From: a virus
Length of the DNA stretch: 15,593 nucleotides
UHGV virus genome: UHGV-0078853
Reading direction: 5' to 3' (one strand)
Shown: piece after piece, positions 1-12,952 of the stretch
Layout of the letters: every line of letters starts with the position of its first letter
Position numbering within the stretch: the first letter of the stretch is position 1
Made by a program: the position numbers and the translations under genes
Notes under the pieces: model-generated
Seen by the model: only the letters and a program-made list of their open reading frames with translations
What the model was told of the DNA's origin: nothing
The model's database searches: none

Positions 1-576
1 ACCACCGGCCCCGCCAGTAGAATTTTTGTTACCGGAAGCCCCGCCGCCGGTTGCTGCATCTGCTTTAATCAGATGCGAAAATGCTTTGTGCTCACGCAGA
101 TACTTTTTAAATTGCTCTGCGTCGGTGGTGATGACATTACCATCTGCACCTGTGAACTTGGTCACAACGTCATCGCCGTCAAATTCGGTCTTGACCATCA
201 TAGCGATAATATCCGCTGCGCTCTCATCAATCAACATTCCAGACAACTGGCTGATAACTGATTTACGTTCCGCGCCGAGGATACGCTCAGCCATTTTGCT
301 AATCTTACCGTCTTTCTCGGCGAGTACTGGCTCATACTGACTGCGCAACGTTTTCTCGAATGCCTCAAGTTCGCCGTTCTGTTTTGCGCGTTCCTGTTCG
401 GCTTTCAGCTTCGCATCTGCGGCTTCTTTCGCGGCAGCGGCGGCAGCTTTCTTTTCAGACAAGAGCTTCTCGTTGTTAGCTTTAAGACCGGATACCAGCG
501 CGTCAACTTCTTCTTTGGTAAACGTGGTCTTAGTCTCTTGTTGTTCGATAGTTTCGTCTTTCACTTCTTCGCTCAT
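1..576 (-). CDS. putative capsid scaffolding protein, N-terminal 192 codons (3' end beyond window edge)
   Basis: Minus-strand frame is open from 576 down to 1 with no stop. ATG at 576-574 has a GGGGA Shine-Dalgarno about 7 nt upstream. Translation MSEEVKDETIEQQETKTTFTKEEVDALVSGLKANNEKLLSEKKAAAAAAKEA... is charged, Ala/Lys/Glu-rich and ends in a Gly-rich stretch; it is missing from the ORF track only because it lacks an in-window stop. Confidence 0.5.
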   Translation of the reverse strand, partial: MSEEVKDETIEQQETKTTFTKEEVDALVSGLKANNEKLLSEKKAAAAAAKEAADAKLKAEQERAKQNGELEAFEKTLRSQYEPVLAEKDGKISKMAERILGAERKSVISQLSGMLIDESAADIIAMMVKTEFDGDDVVTKFTGADGNVITTDAEQFKKYLREHKAFSHLIKADAATGGGASGNKNSTGGAGG

Positions 577-655
577 CAGTATGTCCCCTGGACGTTGGAA
601 TCCGGGCCACCCGGATTTACATGTCAAGAATAAATTATTCCAACATACAAGGCAA

Positions 656-919
656 CTATTCCAGAATATTCCTCACGTAATCCTGCAACATGAACACTTT
701 AAGTCTCAGTTGCCGTACACATTCTGCGTTCTGGACGTCAATAGCTAAATCCTCGTCCGCGTCGTTACTTGGCAGTGCCAGTTTGCACGGCGGCTGCATC
801 ATCGTCGTATCCGGGGATGGAATTGGCGTTTGCGACGGCGCGGGACTTGAGCTGCACGCGCTCAGGGTCAAAAGTGCACACGCTGCGGCCAGGCGTTTTA
901 ATGTACTTAACGACTTCAC
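656..919 (-). CDS. o-spanin (Rz1-like outer-membrane lipoprotein), overlapped with i-spanin
   Basis: GTG start at 919-917 with AGAGGT Shine-Dalgarno. Signal peptide ends in lipobox LSAC, followed by a Pro/Ser-rich mature region (CSSSPAPSQTPIPSPDTT). It begins inside the upstream gene in another frame and extends 109 nt past its stop. Confidence 0.6.
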   Translation of the reverse strand: MKSLSTLKRLAAACALLTLSACSSSPAPSQTPIPSPDTTMMQPPCKLALPSNDADEDLAIDVQNAECVRQLRLKVFMLQDYVRNILE

Positions 920-1151
920 GGGTGATTACCTCTGATTTCGTCTTGCCTTCGTTATCAGCGGCGGCGGCCTTCGATTCATCCTGCTGCTGCCGTTGTGTTT
1001 TCTTAGCTAACTCAGCCTGTGCTTTCTGCTGTTGCTGCGAAACGAGATTCTCCCGGCCTCCGTTCCAGCCGCTGCGATACTGGTAGATGCCGTGTGCGTA
1101 AGCCAGGATGATGAAACATGCCCCCGCTACGACAGTTGCTTTAAGATTCAT
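765..1151 (-). CDS. i-spanin (Rz-like inner-membrane protein)
   Basis: ATG at 1151 with AAGGGG Shine-Dalgarno. Single N-terminal TMD (ATVVAGACFIILAYA), a Gln/Lys/Ala-rich helical region and a C-proximal Cys; the lipoprotein gene is embedded in a second frame. Confidence 0.6.
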   Translation of the reverse strand: MNLKATVVAGACFIILAYAHGIYQYRSGWNGGRENLVSQQQQKAQAELAKKTQRQQQDESKAAAADNEGKTKSEVITREVVKYIKTPGRSVCTFDPERVQLKSRAVANANSIPGYDDDAAAVQTGTAK

Positions 1152-1175
1152 GTTTCCCCTTTCTCGATAAGTAAA

Positions 1176-1195
1176 GCCCCGCCTTAAAGCGGGGC
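1176..1195 (-). promoter_or_regulatory. GC-rich leader hairpin (GCCCCGC-cttaaa-GCGGGGC) just upstream of the i-spanin start
   Basis: 7-bp perfect inverted repeat read from sequence; on the minus strand it is followed by UUUACUUAUCG and then the spanin Shine-Dalgarno. Attenuator/terminator or stabiliser role is inferred. Confidence 0.4.
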
Positions 1196-1215
1196 GCTAG
1201 TCCTTATCATTTAAA

Positions 1216-1408
1216 CATAGAAACGGCGTAATCTCAGTAAACCAGTTACTTTTTACACAAGCAATAGAGTATGGCCCTTCCGAACGCGTCAGCGTAACTA
1301 CACTCAGGACTTACGTCCCGCTCCGTTACCTGCCCGCGCCGCGGTCGCTTGTTCATACTTCACAAGCTCAGGTGGAGCTTAGCACATTTTTGGTGAAAAG
1401 TCAACTAT
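1216..1408 (-). repeat. copy A of a roughly 190-bp conserved non-coding promoter-leader element (copy B at 12484-12680)
   Basis: Manual alignment with 12484-12680 shows long shared blocks, e.g. caatagag/ctNtggcccttccgaa, aactacactca, ccgcggtcgcttg, cacaagctcag, agcttagcaNattttt, aaaagtcaa. Roughly 75-85 percent identity by eye, direct orientation. Confidence 0.8.
1376..1404 (-). promoter_or_regulatory. putative sigma70-type promoter inside element A (TTGACT-N17-TAAGCT, minus strand)
   Basis: Minus-strand -35 TTGACT at 1404-1399 and -10 TAAGCT at 1381-1376 with a 17-nt spacer. The same hexamers and spacing recur in copy B. The -10 is weak, so strength is uncertain. Confidence 0.4.
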
Positions 1409-1466
1409 TCGAATAGTTTATTCCAACATTTACAATTGAGTGGAATAACTGGAATAATCACAGGCA

Positions 1467-1489
1467 CTAAAAAGCCCCTTTCGGGGCTT
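1467..1489 (-). terminator. intrinsic terminator downstream of the Ig-like gene
   Basis: Minus-strand RNA forms AAGCCCC-GAAA-GGGGCUU followed by a U-run (UUUUUAG), 5 nt after the stop at 1494. Confidence 0.6.
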
Positions 1490-1493
1490 CAGT

Positions 1494-1955
1494 TTATTCT
1501 TGCTTAGTAACCTTCGCTGCTTTACTTACGGCCTCTATACCATCGGCATCAGTGACTTTAACGAAGTATTCACCAACTGCGTTAACCGTCAGAGACAGAG
1601 CCTCTTCCGGGGCGTTTACCACTTCCTTCCCGTCTTTGTACCAGGTCAGCGCATATGGTGCTTTGCCCGCCTTAACTTCGACAGCGATATTTGCGCTGCC
1701 GTCTGCCAGTTCAGCGTCCTGCGGTTGTACGGAGAAATACACATCACCAGCATCCGCCAGGTACTGAATCTCATAAAGCATACCTGCCGCTGGCAGCGCA
1801 ATACCGGTCTTGTCCGCAAACGGCATATCGTCCACTGGTGTTCCGAGTACACTTTCGTCTTCAATAAACACCACGTTCTCGCCAGAGCCAGACACGCGGG
1901 CGTACTGGACTACGCGACGAGACGGTACGTCAGTTACTTTGAAAAAGCCCATCAT
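1494..1955 (-). CDS. Ig-like domain protein (possible head decoration or accessory protein)
   Basis: ATG at 1955 overlaps the upstream stop (TAATG). C-terminal about 60 aa (YALTWYKDGKEVVNAPEEALSLTVNAVGEYFVKVTDADG) resembles bacterial Ig-like (Big_2-type) domains. Confidence 0.55.
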   Translation of the reverse strand: MMGFFKVTDVPSRRVVQYARVSGSGENVVFIEDESVLGTPVDDMPFADKTGIALPAAGMLYEIQYLADAGDVYFSVQPQDAELADGSANIAVEVKAGKAPYALTWYKDGKEVVNAPEEALSLTVNAVGEYFVKVTDADGIEAVSKAAKVTKQE

Positions 1956-3031
1956 TATTCCCCTTTCAGATAATCAGCAACACGTTTATCGAGTTCCGCC
2001 ATCTGCTTAAGCGTGAGCGGATTCCCGAAACCATCTACAGATATTACGCGAAACTCTTCCGGCGATATACCGCTGTTACGGAAAATCTTACCTCGCACCG
2101 GGCCGAGCGCCTGGTCCTGAAACCACGCCGGTTGTTGTTCAAGGAACTCGTAGTAAGTGGTGTCTACGCTTACCTGAGTGCCACCTTCCGCGCCTTTAGC
2201 CGCGCGTTTTGCGCCTTTATCGAGGAAGTCGAACTCGGAACTGATTACCGGAGCCGTGCACGACCGGCAGTTCGGATGGGCAGGGGGCATCGGCCCCTTA
2301 CCAATTTCCCACGTCATCCCGTCTCTGACCCTGCAAATCGTACTGGTGCGGCTGTCAAGCGTTGACACCCACTCGTACTTCTCTATGATGTCGTCGTTCT
2401 GGCGGTACGTCTCGTTACGGGCTTCGTTGGACACGTGAGACAGCGCGGTGCGGATGACGGTAGCGGCGTTACGCTCAGAGATGTCCGCCAGCCCACCGGC
2501 GCCTACTACATTCTTAACAATCTGCCGTGTTGTTTGACCTTGTACAAAGCCCATCTTAACGCCGGTTACAAGACGTGCTACTTCCGTTTCACCCCAACCT
2601 GACATCAGTTTAGTGAAATCAACTGGCTTGCCACTCAATGATAATGGCTGAAACTCAGCAGCGGCCCACACCTGTTCGGCGGTGGGCGTAACAAATTCCG
2701 CATCTACGTTGGCGGTCAGGGTCTTTACGTTCCACTCAGCTTCATACACCGCCAGTTCCTTGAGGTCTTCTGCCAGCTTTGTTTGCCAGTCACCAGTAAG
2801 TCCTGTCAGTACTTCTTCAAGGTCACGTAACAGTTTATTCAGTCGCGCAGTGCTGCGACCGTCGTCGCCGAATAGCAGCACCTGCCGTTTGATTTCGTCC
2901 CGCATCTCCTTAATGAACGGCGCGAGGTCTTTCACCTCACCGGATGCGGTTCGTTGCAGCCATATCTGGTGGCTGATTAGTGATGTAAGTAAGCTCATAG
3001 ATAAACCCTGTGGCGCTAAAGTTAATAGCAT
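1955..3031 (-). CDS. head morphogenesis protein (phage Mu F-like / SPP1 gp7 family)
   Basis: Motifs YEWVSTLDSRTSTICRVRDGMTW and PPAHPNCRSCTAP match the Mu F-like domain; sits immediately downstream of portal. Start is either ATG 3031 (no Shine-Dalgarno) or ATG 2998. Confidence 0.8.
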   Translation of the reverse strand: MLLTLAPQGLSMSLLTSLISHQIWLQRTASGEVKDLAPFIKEMRDEIKRQVLLFGDDGRSTARLNKLLRDLEEVLTGLTGDWQTKLAEDLKELAVYEAEWNVKTLTANVDAEFVTPTAEQVWAAAEFQPLSLSGKPVDFTKLMSGWGETEVARLVTGVKMGFVQGQTTRQIVKNVVGAGGLADISERNAATVIRTALSHVSNEARNETYRQNDDIIEKYEWVSTLDSRTSTICRVRDGMTWEIGKGPMPPAHPNCRSCTAPVISSEFDFLDKGAKRAAKGAEGGTQVSVDTTYYEFLEQQPAWFQDQALGPVRGKIFRNSGISPEEFRVISVDGFGNPLTLKQMAELDKRVADYLKGE

Positions 3032-3041
3032 ACTATAAGAA

Positions 3042-3057
3042 AGCCCCTTTCGGGGCT
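3042..3057 (-). promoter_or_regulatory. hairpin AGCCCC-GAAA-GGGGCU between portal and head morphogenesis genes (terminator-like or stabiliser)
   Basis: Same core stem-loop sequence as the terminator at 1472-1489; on the minus strand it is followed by UUUCUUAUAG. Confidence 0.4.
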
Positions 3058-6486: not shown

Positions 6487-6588
6487 TCAGTTGTATAGGC
6501 CGTGGCGTGGTGCTCTTTTACCGTCGCCACCGTAATGGTCGTTAGCTACGGGAATGGCCCGGGCGTTAGGGATGATTAGTAGTCTCAT
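6487..6588 (-). CDS. hypothetical micro-protein (33 aa)
   Basis: ATG 6588 overlaps the upstream stop as ATGA; translation MRLLIIPNARAIPVANDHYGGDGKRAPRHGLYN; no independent support. Confidence 0.25.
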   Translation of the reverse strand: MRLLIIPNARAIPVANDHYGGDGKRAPRHGLYN

Positions 6589-6743
6589 TTGAAGAAACCA
6601 TCCTTGACAAGCTGACGGTATAGTTTAGCTGCGTAACGCTCTGCCTGGCCTTTGCGCCGAAATATTTTCCCATTAACTGAATACTTATTTAACTCTGGCT
6701 CGTACCAAACTTGGTTGTCGATGAACTCCAGAATACTAATCAT
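6585..6743 (-). CDS. hypothetical small protein (52 aa)
   Basis: ATG 6743 overlaps the upstream stop (ATGA) with a GAGGGGAG Shine-Dalgarno-like run upstream; below the ORF-track size cut-off. Confidence 0.4.
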   Translation of the reverse strand: MISILEFIDNQVWYEPELNKYSVNGKIFRRKGQAERYAAKLYRQLVKDGFFK

Positions 6744-6976
6744 TCCCCACTCCCCTCTTTAGCAATACGTTGCTCTGTTTTAGTAATACCCCGGCGCGTG
6801 AATAACACCGGGCTTGTCTTAACGTGCGTCATCAGACGATTGTTATAAATTACATGGCGTTCACAATCGACGTCTTTGCTGTACTTCGCAATCGTCATTT
6901 CGTTGATGCCGGTTTGTCGGCATGTCTCCGCCATCGTGCCAAATTCTTTAATCAGGTTCGGAATGCTGGTAATCAT
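6740..6976 (-). CDS. hypothetical protein (78 aa)
   Basis: Track ORF 6740-7000; the start is more likely ATG 6976, which overlaps the upstream stop as ATGA. Confidence 0.5.
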   Translation of the reverse strand: MITSIPNLIKEFGTMAETCRQTGINEMTIAKYSKDVDCERHVIYNNRLMTHVKTSPVLFTRRGITKTEQRIAKEGSGE

Positions 6977-8101: not shown

Positions 8102-8123
8102 CTAGTCATTGCGGAAGATAGAT

Positions 8124-8155
8124 AAAAAAAATCCCGGCTGGGTCAGGGCCGGGAT
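8124..8155 (-). terminator. strong rho-independent terminator ending the lysis operon
   Basis: 8-bp stem ATCCCGGC/GCCGGGAT with a 9-nt loop, followed on the minus strand by eight U residues (plus-strand A-run 8124-8131). Confidence 0.8.
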
Positions 8156-8219: not shown

Positions 8220-8297
8220 TCAACCTTCGCCGTAACCGACCTGCTCGTCAATATCGTCACGAGATTTAACTGGGTTGGTGAACTCTTGCAGTGCCAT
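8220..8297 (-). CDS. possible 25-aa micro-ORF downstream of endolysin
   Basis: ATG 8297 with a GGAGG Shine-Dalgarno 5 nt upstream; translation MALQEFTNPVKSRDDIDEQVGYGEG; no other support. Confidence 0.25.
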   Translation of the reverse strand: MALQEFTNPVKSRDDIDEQVGYGEG

Positions 8298-8366
8298 AAC
8301 GGCCTCCATTGGCAAATACGAAAAACTTGGCCTAACCAGAATACTAAACGCCTTCGTATTCGTCCA

Positions 8367-8852
8367 TCATTTAACTGCCCTCCCGATAGCTTCAGCCTCT
8401 CGCCACGGTTTACCGTCGAACAGCGCCAGACGCCCGGCGGTACGGCGACGCAGGCCAAGTAGTGGTTTGCCGTTCTGGTTGATGAACAGCGCCAGCTTAG
8501 CCCGCAGTGTTGCAGTATCACCAGAACGCAGTGCCTTGCCTGTGCCCGTAGTAGACGCAATCACGCCAGCACCTGCGTTATACACCAGGTCACACACCGC
8601 ATCGAACTGTGCCTGTGTAAGCGAATGGTGCGCCGCGGCATCAACCGCAGCTACGGCTTTAGACATATCGCGATTCAGTAACAGGAGGCCTTGCCCCGGG
8701 GTGATGGTCTTACCCGGGGTTACGTCCGGTCCGTAGTGCCCGTAGCCAATAGTCAGGTACTTCTCGTTCGACGTAGCACGATACGCAGTTCCGCAGAAAG
8801 TCTCCCATGCGGCGGTAAAATGCAATCCATTATCTGAAATGTTTCGAGACAC
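8367..8852 (-). CDS. endolysin, phage lysozyme (GH24, T4 e-like fold)
   Basis: Motifs YLTIGYGHYG and FDAVCDLVYNAGAG are typical of phage lysozymes. Most plausible start is GTG 8852 preceded by GGAGGG (7-nt spacer); the track ORF extends to 8903. Confidence 0.8.
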   Translation of the reverse strand: MSRNISDNGLHFTAAWETFCGTAYRATSNEKYLTIGYGHYGPDVTPGKTITPGQGLLLLNRDMSKAVAAVDAAAHHSLTQAQFDAVCDLVYNAGAGVIASTTGTGKALRSGDTATLRAKLALFINQNGKPLLGLRRRTAGRLALFDGKPWREAEAIGRAVK

Positions 8853-9102
8853 GCTTATGCCCTCCGTATGACAGCCACGCCTGGCGAATCTGGCGCAGCG
8901 CAACTAATGTGATTAATGTCTCAGGCAGCGTTGGTGACATGCTGCCCTGTAACAGGTGGATACATCCGGCAGCGCAGACGATAGCAGTCAGGATATAGTG
9001 CACCCGACCAAATAGCCCGTCATCCACGCTCGGATGGTATACATTAAACAGCGATGTGCCGCCGATTGCCAGCATACCGCCGAACCAGAATAACTCATTC
9101 AT
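8830..9102 (-). CDS. holin-like membrane protein (2 predicted TMDs, 90 aa)
   Basis: ATG 9102 with a GGAGG Shine-Dalgarno 5 nt upstream, overlapping the last codons of the upstream holin; two hydrophobic segments and a basic C-terminus. The track ORF (8830-9282) starts too far upstream. Confidence 0.55.
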   Translation of the reverse strand: MNELFWFGGMLAIGGTSLFNVYHPSVDDGLFGRVHYILTAIVCAAGCIHLLQGSMSPTLPETLITLVALRQIRQAWLSYGGHKRVSKHFR

Positions 9103-9403
9103 CTGTGCCTCCTCGACGCGCGATGTATTCTCCAGCGACGATACTGGAGAGACGGGAATAGATAGGCATCCAGAGAATAGCGATGATGAAGCCAAGGCCA
9201 GCGATTTCACGGTCGCCCGCGATACCGAACCATTGAGCCGCGAGAGGTGCGCCAAATACAGCGCAGGCGAAACCAGTAGCAATAAAGCAGAATCCGTCGA
9301 TAGGGCCAGAAATAACGGACTTATGTTGTCGTAGTCCGATGACCCCTCCGGCGAGCGCGGCGGCGAGAAGCCAGCCTGTCACTGTTTCAGTAAATTTATC
9401 CAA
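9095..9403 (-). CDS. holin (3 predicted TMDs, 102 aa), TTG start
   Basis: Three hydrophobic segments and a charged C-terminus (ARRGGTDE). The only in-frame start is TTG 9403, preceded by GGAGGA. First gene of the lysis cassette, upstream of the endolysin. Confidence 0.6.
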   Translation of the reverse strand: MDKFTETVTGWLLAAALAGGVIGLRQHKSVISGPIDGFCFIATGFACAVFGAPLAAQWFGIAGDREIAGLGFIIAILWMPIYSRLSSIVAGEYIARRGGTDE

Positions 9404-11011: not shown

Positions 11012-11041
11012 CTCTGTCTCTCCTCTCGCTTGTGTAAATGA

Positions 11042-11070
11042 ATAGTAGCCTATTCTATCTTAGTGTGCAA
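11042..11070 (-). promoter_or_regulatory. internal promoter, TTGCAC-N17-TACTAT family (minus strand)
   Basis: Minus-strand -35 TTGCAC at 11070-11065 and -10 TACTAT at 11047-11042; same hexamers, spacing and flanking AATAGGnTACTATTCA as the promoter at 12335-12363. Confidence 0.45.
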
Positions 11071-11733: not shown

Positions 11734-11908
11734 ACCAGAACCTCACATTCATCCAGATACACGAACAATAACGACCCTTTGTACTCAATCATAAAACCAT
11801 AATGGTTGATGCTGAACGCCGGAAAAACATCACCTACCGAGATACCGAAATCTATAAGCCTGCGGTCAGTTATACGGACAAGCCTGCGGTCAGTTATACG
11901 GATTCGCA
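11730..11908 (-). CDS. hypothetical protein with internal 8-aa tandem duplication (59 aa)
   Basis: Likely start ATG 11908 (GGGAGG upstream); N-terminus MRIRITDRRLVRITDRRLIDFG encoded by a 24-bp tandem repeat. Confidence 0.5.
11857..11904. repeat. 24-bp tandem direct repeat, 2 copies (22/24 identical)
   Basis: agcctgcggtcagttatacggaca followed immediately by agcctgcggtcagttatacggatt; in-frame within the CDS 11730-11908. Confidence 0.9.
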
Positions 11909-12300: not shown

Positions 12301-12334
12301 AACCCTCACTCCTCTGTCTCGTTCCGATAAGTGA

Positions 12335-12363
12335 ATAGTATCCTATTATGTTGGGGCGTGCAA
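12335..12363 (-). promoter_or_regulatory. promoter proximal to the early-left operon, TTGCAC-N17-TACTAT (minus strand)
   Basis: Minus-strand -35 TTGCAC at 12363-12358 and -10 TACTAT at 12340-12335; dyad AATAG-N4-CTATT overlaps the -10. Confidence 0.5.
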
Positions 12364-12422
12364 GAGATTAGTTACGTTGCCGTTGTGATTCTTTCGTTTC
12401 TTAAAGGAGTACGCAACGCAGT

Positions 12423-12442
12423 GGGTGGGCGTTAGCCCACCC
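12423..12442. promoter_or_regulatory. stable GC hairpin GGGTGGGC-gtta-GCCCACCC in the early-left leader
   Basis: 8-bp perfect stem with no adjacent U-tract on either strand; lies between element B and the proximal promoter. Confidence 0.45.
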
Positions 12443-12483
12443 CAGCGGAGTGAAGTACTCTCTACCTCACTCACTCACGGCAA

Positions 12484-12680
12484 CTATAGAAACTTTTAAT
12501 TATCAGTGACTTGGGTATTTAGGCGGGATTAACAATAGACTTTGGCCCTTCCGAAAGCGCCAGCGGAACTACACTCAAGTGCCTAATGGCACGCGTTGCG
12601 TTCCCTGCCGCTCCGCGGTCGCTTGCGATATCTCACAAGCTCAGTGAAGCTTAGCATATTTTTAAGTAAAAGTCAATACT
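12484..12680 (-). repeat. copy B of the conserved promoter-leader element
   Basis: See 1216-1408; same blocks in the same order and orientation. Confidence 0.8.
12648..12676 (-). promoter_or_regulatory. putative promoter inside element B (TTGACT-N17-TAAGCT, minus strand)
   Basis: Minus-strand -35 at 12676-12671 and -10 at 12653-12648; identical architecture to the copy-A promoter. Confidence 0.4.
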
Positions 12681-12723
12681 AGTAGCATCTTTTGTATCTT
12701 AGTAACTTTGTGTGGTGTTTTGG

Positions 12724-12752
12724 TTGCTTTTACAAAGTTACCGCCTTATACT
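12724..12752 (+). promoter_or_regulatory. putative rightward promoter for the replication operon (TTGCTT-N17-TATACT)
   Basis: -35 at 12724-12729 and -10 at 12747-12752; AGGAGA Shine-Dalgarno and ATG 12782 lie downstream. Confidence 0.45.
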
Positions 12753-12781
12753 TAGGTACATCTTACATAGGAGAACGTGAA

Positions 12782-12952
12782 ATGACTATCAATGAAGTAG
12801 CTGAACGTATTGGGGTGACACGTCAGACAATTAATAACTGGATTAAGAGTGGAAAGTTTCCTGATTGCAGCGTTAAAGTAATGGGTCGCCGGATGCCGGG
12901 GACATTTGACCGTAATAAAGTTGAAGCGTGGATTAAGGAGAATGTGAAATGA
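12782..12952 (+). CDS. AlpA/excisionase-type helix-turn-helix DNA-binding protein (56 aa)
   Basis: MTINEVAERIGVTRQTINNWIKSGKFPDCSVKVMGRRMPGTFDRNKVEAWIKE matches the AlpA-family HTH pattern. Real start is ATG 12782 with AGGAGA, not the track start at 12692. Confidence 0.75.
   Translation: MTINEVAERIGVTRQTINNWIKSGKFPDCSVKVMGRRMPGTFDRNKVEAWIKENVK

Follow-up and report, generated by a model that had tools for sequence, protein, structure and literature searches.

Spanin genes of a Kagunavirus probably head the scaffold and capsid operon, behind a conserved predicted promoter and a structured leader RNA

UHGV virus genome UHGV-0078853, of which 15,593 nucleotides were analyzed here (the window), raises a question about how a phage arranges the genes for lysing its host: why should a pair of putative spanin genes lie among the head genes, about 7 kb from the holin and endolysin genes, and is it a foreign unit there? 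A reading made from the sequence without database searches (the sequence-only reading) had proposed that the pair is a self-contained, separately regulated unit, bracketed by an exact 12-bp direct repeat and possibly acquired as a moron. The spanin observation is correct, but the arrangement was already known, and acquisition as a moron is not supported. We consider it likely that spanins of the Jersey type are the first genes of a scaffold and capsid operon, placed behind a terminator (T1), a conserved promoter, and a structured leader RNA that would regulate the operon in cis.

A known spanin pair among the head genes

Over its first 3.1 kb the window shares 99.4% identity with Escherichia phage vB_EcoS_fKuEco01 and 97-99% with K1H and other K1 phages, and judged by this identity the source phage is a Kagunavirus of the subfamily Guernseyvirinae. 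The minus strand carries nearly all genes up to 12.5 kb, with small genes transcribed first, then two holin genes, the endolysin gene, further small genes, and the terminase, portal, head morphogenesis, Hoc-like decoration, spanin, and scaffold genes. In such lysis systems the i-spanin has its anchor in the inner membrane, the o-spanin is attached to the outer membrane as a lipoprotein, and their complex disrupts the outer membrane after the holin and endolysin have acted. The lysis features of the window are the following.

765 to 1151, minus strand: i-spanin gene, Rz-like, 128 amino acids, N-terminal transmembrane segment (PHROG 2536; gp06 of K1H)
656 to 919, minus strand: o-spanin gene, Rz1-like outer-membrane lipoprotein, 87 amino acids, GTG start, lipobox LSAC (PHROG 5672 and 1267; gp07 of K1H; Jersey o-spanin family, PMC6139136)
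8367 to 9403, minus strand: cassette of holin, second holin, and endolysin genes, without spanins (lysis PHROGs)
8123 to 8155, minus strand: intrinsic terminator closing the holin-endolysin unit (hairpin and T run)

The 128-amino acid product matches PHROG 2536, "Rz-like spanin," over its full length (E-value 7e-57). Its hydrophobic segment spans residues 3-20 (Kyte-Doolittle 17-residue maximum of 1.94 at residue 3), and a charged, glutamine-rich stretch can be read from the translation at about residues 37-70. The 87-amino acid product matches two other "Rz-like spanin" families, PHROG 5672 (7e-30) and PHROG 1267 (6e-20), and carries LSAC at residues 19-22, with the cysteine at 22 and serine, not aspartate, at +2, ahead of a proline-rich mature part of 66 amino acids (12% proline). 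The spanin matches, the lipobox, and the transmembrane segment bear out the proposal of an Rz/Rz1-like pair at 1151-656. As proposed, the two genes overlap, sharing 155 nt in different frames, but the o-spanin gene also continues past the i-spanin stop for another 109 nt, which makes the pair "overlapped"; the 87-amino acid frame is not "embedded" as the sequence-only reading had it. The topology is that of lambda Rz/Rz1, an inner-membrane protein and an outer-membrane lipoprotein encoded in another frame, whereas lambda Rz1 is fully embedded.

Homology and sequence features identify the genes at 656-1151 as a known two-component spanin of the "Jersey" family of overlapped spanins, which includes those of Jersey, SETP3, K1G, K1H, K1ind1-3, HK578, and others and for which an overlap of 155 bp has been given in Jersey itself (Kongari et al. 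2018, PMC6139136). The proteins, the overlapped architecture, the 155-nt overlap, and the genomic position are all alike, with 97-99% DNA identity to K1H and fKuEco01 and no material difference, and the pair of the window represents a further isolate of that family. The DNA with this 97-99% identity comes from records that annotate "Rz-like spanin," among them the K1H RefSeq record, where gp06 and gp07 carry this name between the Hoc-like gp05 and the scaffold gp08. Phage records with homologs of the i-spanin number 663. PHROGs, but not Pfam, cover the Jersey family: for the spanins Pfam gave nothing above its gathering threshold, the only match, to DUF2514, scoring 14.3 bits where 26 are needed.

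Spanins apart from the holin and endolysin genes

Matches to lysis PHROGs place the first holin gene at 9095-9403, the second at about 8830-9102, and the endolysin gene at 8367-8903, some 7 kb from the spanin pair, just as had been stated. No spanin-like open reading frame (ORF) was found among the ORFs 3' of the cassette, after the endolysin gene. The cassette does close without spanins at a strong terminator, a hairpin at 8131-8155 followed by a run of eight T, although this lies about 215 nt past the endolysin stop rather than at the end of the gene. Between that stop and the terminator is a short ORF (8220-8315, minus strand, 25-31 amino acids) with a good Shine-Dalgarno sequence, GGAGG, and an ATG; it was ruled out as a spanin gene, having neither a transmembrane segment nor a lipobox.

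The spanins are physically uncoupled from the holin-endolysin cassette, and probably transcriptionally as well. In lambda, Rz/Rz1 are linked to S and R, whereas the operon head in the window has only the spanins, with holin and endolysin 7 kb off. Precedents for separation are T7 gp18.5/18.7 and T4 pseT.3/pseT.2, which lie apart from holin and/or endolysin genes, among virion or packaging genes; these are unrelated in sequence to the spanins described here and are driven by phage RNA polymerase or T4 late promoters. The architecture of the T4 spanins has been termed "separated" (PMC6139136). Two genome papers, one of them on fBC-Eco01 (PMC9825357), remarked on the separation of spanins from holin and endolysin, and together with RefSeq annotation and the spanin survey they make the arrangement itself already known. 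Automated lysis-cassette calls in K1- and Salmonella-therapy phages must include a search among the head genes.

An ancestral position at the probable head of an operon

The genes and spacer that enclose the spanin pair are as follows.

1 to 585, minus strand: head scaffolding gene, 5' part, running off the window (PHROG 206 "head scaffolding protein," E-value 3e-42; K1H gp08 is annotated at the equivalent position)
1494 to 1955, minus strand: Hoc-like (Ig-like) head decoration gene (PHROG 3945, E-value 7e-85)
601 to 619, minus strand: GC hairpin AAUCCGGG-UGG-CCCGGAUU without a U tract, in the spanin-scaffold spacer (from folding; not called as a terminator)

The order of Hoc-like gene, spanin pair, and scaffold gene recurs in Kagunavirus, in Jerseyvirus (SeF1, buks), and in Serratia phage Tsm2. 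Enterobacter phage phiEap-2 and Hafnia phage TS33 have extra genes between the Hoc-like gene and the spanin, with phiEap-2 annotating an Rz-like spanin at the corresponding position, and in Dhillonvirus HK578 the spanin follows the head-morphogenesis gene, just ahead of the scaffold gene. Among the genera sampled by annotation, no genome lacked a spanin at this locus, and in no sampled genome did the scaffold gene directly follow the Hoc-like gene. The Hoc-like gene itself occurs in 489 phage records, whose names point without exception to the enterobacterial host groups also seen in the 663 spanin records; this comparison was made on organism summaries, without intersecting the two sets record by record. 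Judged from gene order, the spanin position is ancestral and fixed across the Guernseyvirinae, with a similar one in Dhillonvirus HK578.

Acquisition as a moron would mean that a promoter-spanin-terminator cassette was inserted between head genes and that the 12-bp repeats are insertion scars. A promoter-like site does lie upstream, a repeat does flank the unit, and a promoter-like site between late genes is common to this locus and to morons of the HK97/HK022 type. The spanin unit, however, has none of their other marks: its own terminator is missing, as a terminator consensus scan found none on the coding strand at 586-655, after the o-spanin gene; its GC content of 0.53-0.58 lies within the range of the flanks (0.49-0.60); and presence/absence polymorphism is lacking, with no empty site seen, a spanin in every genus sampled, and Hoc-like and spanin records sharing host groups. 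The repeat, moreover, is a dyad motif kept at both positions across genera, as described below, and the true moron-like units of the locus are reverse-oriented accessory genes that sit upstream of the promoter on the opposite strand. Together with the fixed position, this makes it very improbable that the spanins arrived as a moron.

A sequence break at window position 1457 marks the insertion hot spot of these reverse-oriented genes (2078-2913 in L280, 10457-10658 in L001, and 1268-1480 in L283, three of the related sequences). The insertions include an adenine methyltransferase gene with its own bidirectional terminator in Salmonella phage S103, a 33-amino acid hydrophobic ORF in K1H, and a 70-amino acid ORF in phiEap-2.

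The spacer between the spanin and scaffold genes is 70 bp long, and Jerseyvirus has a hairpin equivalent to that at 601-619 but of different sequence. Since no terminator follows the o-spanin gene, the promoter most likely serves the spanins together with the scaffold, capsid, and downstream genes, and the spanins are most likely the first genes of a scaffold/capsid/tail operon. What stands of the proposed separately regulated unit is the uncoupling from the holin-endolysin genes behind a promoter-like element of its own; the notion of a closed, self-contained unit is not supported, there being no terminator 3' of the o-spanin gene and no U tract behind the spacer hairpin.

The flanking repeat is part of a conserved dyad

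The 12-mer TTATTCCAACAT is found exactly at 635-646 and 1418-1429 and nowhere else in the window, even with one mismatch allowed, and the repeat extends to 19 nt with 17 of 19 positions identical. The sequence-only reading had called this exact repeat only suggestive, and taken alone the 12 letters lack significance: exact direct repeats of at least 12 nt number 17 in the window, against 5.9 +/- 2.5 in Markov shuffles. The 12-mer is, however, half of a dyad, TGGAATAA-N-TTATTC, that is contained in both copies. On the coding strand the upstream copy reads ATGTTGGAATAAACTATTC and lies just 5' of the -35 hexamer, while the downstream copy falls in the spanin-scaffold spacer.

628 to 646, minus strand: downstream dyad copy, ATGTTGGAATAATTTATTC, holding the 12-mer (GGAATAATTTATTC in Jerseyvirus)

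When the 17-nt dyad TGGAATAANTTATTCCA is searched with up to 3 mismatches in a complete 40.8-kb relative, the two strong matches are these two sites, against a chance expectation of 0.09; a third, weaker match overlaps a gene start. Hexamers of GGAATA form two tight clusters of three, exactly at the promoter and at the spanin-scaffold spacer. Jerseyvirus retains GGAATA(C/A)TTTATTC at both positions despite diverged surroundings, and in distant members the promoter dyad is perfect in phiEap-2 (TGGAATAAATTATTCCA) and reads TGGAATAATTTATTCC in TS33. Because the dyad has been kept at both positions while the surroundings diverged, the repeat is real and selected and not an insertion scar. Most likely it is the binding site of a regulatory protein.

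A second dyad motif, AATAGTAnCCTATT, is intergenic at 11041-11054, 12334-12347, and, more weakly, 3024-3037, and at 12651, 34598, and 35891 in L002, the closest complete relative. The 40.8-kb genome has 8 such sites with up to 2 mismatches, against 0.8 expected. Its half-sites, AATAG/CTATT, are those of the palindrome upstream of the spanin promoter (below), in reversed order. The motif was reported by PHIRE as "phage promoters" in the fBC-Eco01 paper (PMC9825357), a label that contrasts with the fact that these phages encode no RNA polymerase.

Predicted promoter and upstream control region

Between the Hoc-like gene and the spanins lies a non-coding block that begins with the following features.

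1466 to 1489, minus strand: T1, a terminator hairpin, AAGCCCCGAAAGGGGCUU followed by UUUUU, directly 3' of the Hoc-like gene (-15.5 kcal/mol, z = -3.9)
1403 to 1458, minus strand: upstream control region with palindrome, upstream dyad copy, and direct repeats (conserved in Jerseyvirus, phiEap-2, and Hafnia TS33)
1376 to 1404, minus strand: predicted sigma-70-type promoter, with -35 TTGACT (1399-1404), a 17-nt spacer, and extended -10 TGcTAAGCT (1376-1384), from reading the sequence

In 34 distinct versions from two loci the promoter hexamers are invariant, apart from one record with TCGACT, while the spacer varies in sequence at constant length. Invariant hexamers around a variable spacer of fixed length are the footprint expected of a promoter, and this conservation is what points to promoter activity, with a predicted transcription start near 1369. 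Jerseyvirus retains the order of the elements, with AGACTT at -35 and TGnTACGCT at -10. Upstream, a perfect 16-bp palindrome, AACTATTCGAATAGTT, at 1403-1418 is centered at -41.5, followed by the upstream dyad copy at 1411-1429 and two direct repeats of TTATTCCA at 1441-1448 and 1450-1457. T1 is kept in Jerseyvirus; in the window the consensus scan calls it on the plus strand only.

Three minor observations belong to this region. A divergent promoter-like site on the plus strand (1429-1458, TTTACA-18-AATAAT with an upstream TG) overlies the TTATTCC repeats and faces away from the spanins. The 18-nt terminator hairpin AAAGCCCCTTTCGGGGCT occurs twice in identical form, at 3040-3057 after the portal gene and at 1471-1488 after the Hoc-like gene. 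A "tRNA-Ser" annotated in two Jerseyvirus records was discarded as an explanation of the leader, since it covers T1 and the Hoc-like 3' end on the other strand; ARAGORN finds no tRNA.

A conserved and structured leader RNA

From the predicted start at about 1369 to the i-spanin ATG (1151), the transcript would have a leader of about 218 nt, with three predicted hairpins, P1 to P3.

1262 to 1374, minus strand: leader core, with the P1 hairpin (1347-1367), the long irregular P2 hairpin (1280-1344), and an invariant single-stranded AAGGGCC tail (1262-1279) (covariance model R1, 136.5 bits)
1166 to 1208, minus strand: P3, a terminator-like hairpin in two tiers, the inner stem being GCCCCGC/GCGGGGC (1176-1195) and the outer one GAUAAG/CUUAUC (from scan and folds)
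12533 to 12676, minus strand: second promoter and P1-P2 leader, at the head of a long minus-strand transcription unit (R1, 104.9 bits)

The non-coding block at 1152-1456, some 300 bp long, shows 95-100% identity across 181 phage records, and a divergent Jersey-type version of the same architecture is found in 269 further records. Compared with Jerseyvirus ER11, it is 96.2% identical, against 80.6% for Rz, 75.2% for the part specific to Rz1, 85.1% for the Hoc-like gene, and 57.6% for the scaffold gene. ER11 and S103, although classified as Jerseyvirus, carry the Kagunavirus-type block at 96-98% identity, which implies exchange of the block between genera.

Folded singly, five variants of the leader core give the same shape: a short P1, a 2-nt linker, an irregular P2 of about 65 nt, and then the invariant single-stranded AAGGGCC. 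The base of P2 is invariant (CCG-C-GGNGCG...CGCN'UU-CGG), while its apex is variable but always paired. RNAalifold missed part of the apical stems when given a plain MAFFT alignment, so the structure was supplied and the sequences were re-aligned with the covariance model. In the alignment fitted in this way 92.9% of cells are paired, against 30-39% when the partners are slid, and 16 of the 28 pairs have changed on both sides, which none of 500 shuffles reached. Even in the plain MAFFT alignment one pair of the P2 base takes the forms C-G, A-U, and U-A, and two G-U pairs that never vary assign the fold to the transcribed strand.

P3 stops just short of the Shine-Dalgarno sequence, 15 nt before the i-spanin ATG, and its inner hairpin at 1176-1195 folds with -17.2 kcal/mol. 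Both tiers covary between genera: the inner stem has compensatory variants GCCCUGC/GCAGGGC (in the relative L003), GCCCGGC/GCCGGGC (in Jerseyvirus), and GCCCGAC/GUCGGGC (in the relative L152), and the outer stem is UAUACG/CGUAUA in Jerseyvirus, as established by direct reading and folds, the two genera being offset by one column in the alignment. A consensus scan of the window calls P3 a terminator. The claim that the spanins are preceded by a promoter-leader and hairpin of their own is thus upheld, both in the hairpin at 1176-1195 and in the repeat of 1262-1404 at 12533-12676. Inspection of the leader and P3 arms revealed no riboswitch-style alternative pairing.

The conserved sequence might instead encode a small protein, since a 36-amino acid ORF at 1246-1356 is listed as "hypothetical" in some records, including fKuEco01 and SeF1, and most copy-1 variants, as well as Jerseyvirus, keep its "...AFGRA.LYC" frame open. 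We rejected this on its broken frames and shifted N-termini, and hold it to be extremely improbable: the second copy in the window has no start codon, the frame is broken or truncated in two relatives (L026 and L035), the N-terminal parts are frameshifted between variants, one codon gives L, V, F, G, I, or P, and the variation follows compensatory base pairing. On the evidence of covariation, the leader is a real, selected RNA structure.

It also looks like an undescribed element of the locus. Rfam 15 gave no match at the gathering threshold over the whole window and only chance-level hits (E-value at least 0.28) at 1100-1520, searched to an E-value of 10. When 5,426 E. coli genomes were searched by blastn, the intergenic block had no match, so it was not captured from the host. 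In the window, as in a complete genome, model R1 detects exactly two copies, each just downstream of the same promoter; it detects one copy per locus in Jerseyvirus, a weak one in phiEap-2, and none in HK578 or Tsm2. A pattern scan of 185,579 bacterial and archaeal genomes returned only GC-rich chance matches (R1 at most 19 bits, no Rfam family), with one exception. This is L209 (JAEWLW010000073.1, a metagenome-assembled genome labeled "Bacillota bacterium"), a 6.2-kb contig with small phage-like ORFs that carries the leader at 2131-2245 with 96 bits and is probably a misbinned Kagunavirus fragment. The leader draws attention for these reasons together: it is conserved while neighboring genes drift to 58-85%, its hairpins have covariation support, and it is absent from Rfam.

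The second copy of the leader is present in only about 43-54 of 181 related records; it has no P3 and runs on into genes. The variable apex of copy 2 in one phage (L115) matches that of copy 1 in another (L035), which suggests exchange between the two leader sites. The window is mosaic in this respect: the head region is 99% identical to fKuEco01, while the region of copy 2 (12420-12760) is only 82% identical to that phage (compared with 34226-34459 of L002) and 99.7% identical to IMG/VR contig L036.

Possible roles of the leader

The most likely role of the leader is cis-regulation of the spanin-capsid operon. Transcription from the packaging and head genes would stop at T1 and restart at the extended -10 sigma-70 promoter, which is flanked by the TTATTCC/GGAATAA dyad and the direct-repeat array. 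The transcript would comprise the leader (P1, P2, AAGGGCC, and P3) and then the spanins, continuing into the scaffold gene without a terminator. A regulator may bind the dyads at the promoter and in the spanin-scaffold spacer, and the leader would act in cis, either on elongation through the terminator-like P3 or on processing or stabilization of the messenger RNA (mRNA). Spanin supply would in this way be tied to virion production rather than to the holin and endolysin. Should the leader govern elongation or the fate of the mRNA, this would account for the timing of virion and spanin synthesis by host polymerase alone in these widely used virulent siphophages, and the leader would offer a compact, portable promoter-leader part for phage engineering.

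Several points weigh against this cis-regulatory account. The only RNA sequencing paper on a relative, Kagunavirus K1B4, describes three coarse temporal classes and mentions neither the spanins nor promoters. A PHROG scan of 20 small ORFs recognized no regulator. The high intergenic identity could partly reflect recent recombination between genera and not purifying selection alone. The covariation was counted on an alignment that had itself been fitted to the covariance model, P1 is supported mainly by conservation, and in Jerseyvirus the 5' arm of P1 lies at or before the predicted start site. P3 has a mediocre U tract (UUUACUUAU; in Jerseyvirus, UUAGCGUAU), which in both genera pairs within the outer stem, and P3 may not terminate at all.

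How the leader would act can be considered by comparison with known systems. The lambda late operon runs PR'-6S-tR'-S-R-Rz, and the succession of promoter, leader of about 200 nt, GC hairpin, lysis gene or genes, and head genes in the window mirrors it. On this model the promoter would be constitutive, an RNA of about 200 nt would end at P3, and late read-through would come from a phage factor acting on leader RNA or dyad DNA; the perfect palindrome at -41.5 and the TTATTCC array do suggest a DNA-binding regulator. Yet the weak, paired U tract of P3 fits attenuation poorly, no Q homolog or other candidate factor was found among the 20 small ORFs scanned, and covariation in a structurally conserved leader RNA is unexpected for a Q-type factor loaded purely on DNA. 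We regard such attenuation as unlikely.

In that same scan no N-, Q-, or antiterminator-like protein was found, all products being of unknown function except a MerR/Xis-type helix-turn-helix protein (12692-12952), a result that would suit an antiterminator made of RNA only. Phage HK022 has such elements in putL and putR, with the architecture described previously (PMC9378689), and P1-P2 could by analogy let the folded nascent RNA bind its own polymerase and carry it through P3 and later terminators. Paired stem-loops immediately 3' of a promoter, up to two copies in a genome, and the lack of a recognizable dedicated protein are common to both systems. Also in favor, each copy in the window heads a long operon with terminators, and the base of the structure and its flanks are invariant with a variable apex, as expected for binding an invariant host machine. 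Still, there is no match in sequence or structure: R1 matches nothing in the HK022 genome at E-values up to 10 with default filters, and a 21-nt P1 and a P2 of about 65 nt stand against two stems of about 35 nt. Most genomes have a single copy, and since terminators after the capsid gene are common attenuators, antitermination is not required. A put-like function is accordingly doubtful. We raise with as much reserve the wider idea that P1-P2 is a new family of self-sufficient regulatory RNA that modifies elongation by the host polymerase, a second put-like antiterminator unrelated to the first, serving as a spanin/virion switch. Were it true, a leader family conserved across the Guernseyvirinae, with a further copy heading another operon in some Kagunaviruses, would operate in phages without a recognizable N, Q, or phage polymerase.

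The hairpins might also be processing or stability elements, for instance RNase III sites as in T7 early mRNAs, governing how long the operon mRNA lasts or how it is translated. In favor are the shape of P2, irregular and about 23 bp long with internal loops, and the position of the two-tier, covarying P3 directly 5' of the Shine-Dalgarno sequence, but the invariant single-stranded AAGGGCC tail and the tight linkage to one promoter would go unexplained, and we think this role quite unlikely. Improbable, finally, is an independent small-RNA gene of about 200 nt, made up of promoter, leader, and P3, that acts in trans and adjoins the spanins only incidentally. A strong promoter, a structured RNA, and a terminator-like 3' hairpin are what such a gene would have; against it, the second copy continues into genes without a P3, the invariant tail has no complementary target in the phage genome, and no similar sequence turned up in the E. 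coli genomes searched.

Other features of the window

Three further structures lie away from the spanin locus. A 25-nt inverted repeat, 80% complementary, at 6561-6585 and 6730-6754 surrounds a 52-amino acid ORF (6585-6743). Outside the window, at 13341-13364 of L002, a strong terminator-like hairpin of 9 pairs followed by T5 falls in the tail assembly chaperone frameshift gene. Within a small ORF of unknown function, the 23-nt sequence AAGCCTGCGGTCAGTTATACGGA is present twice in exact tandem, with 24-nt spacing, at 11856-11902.

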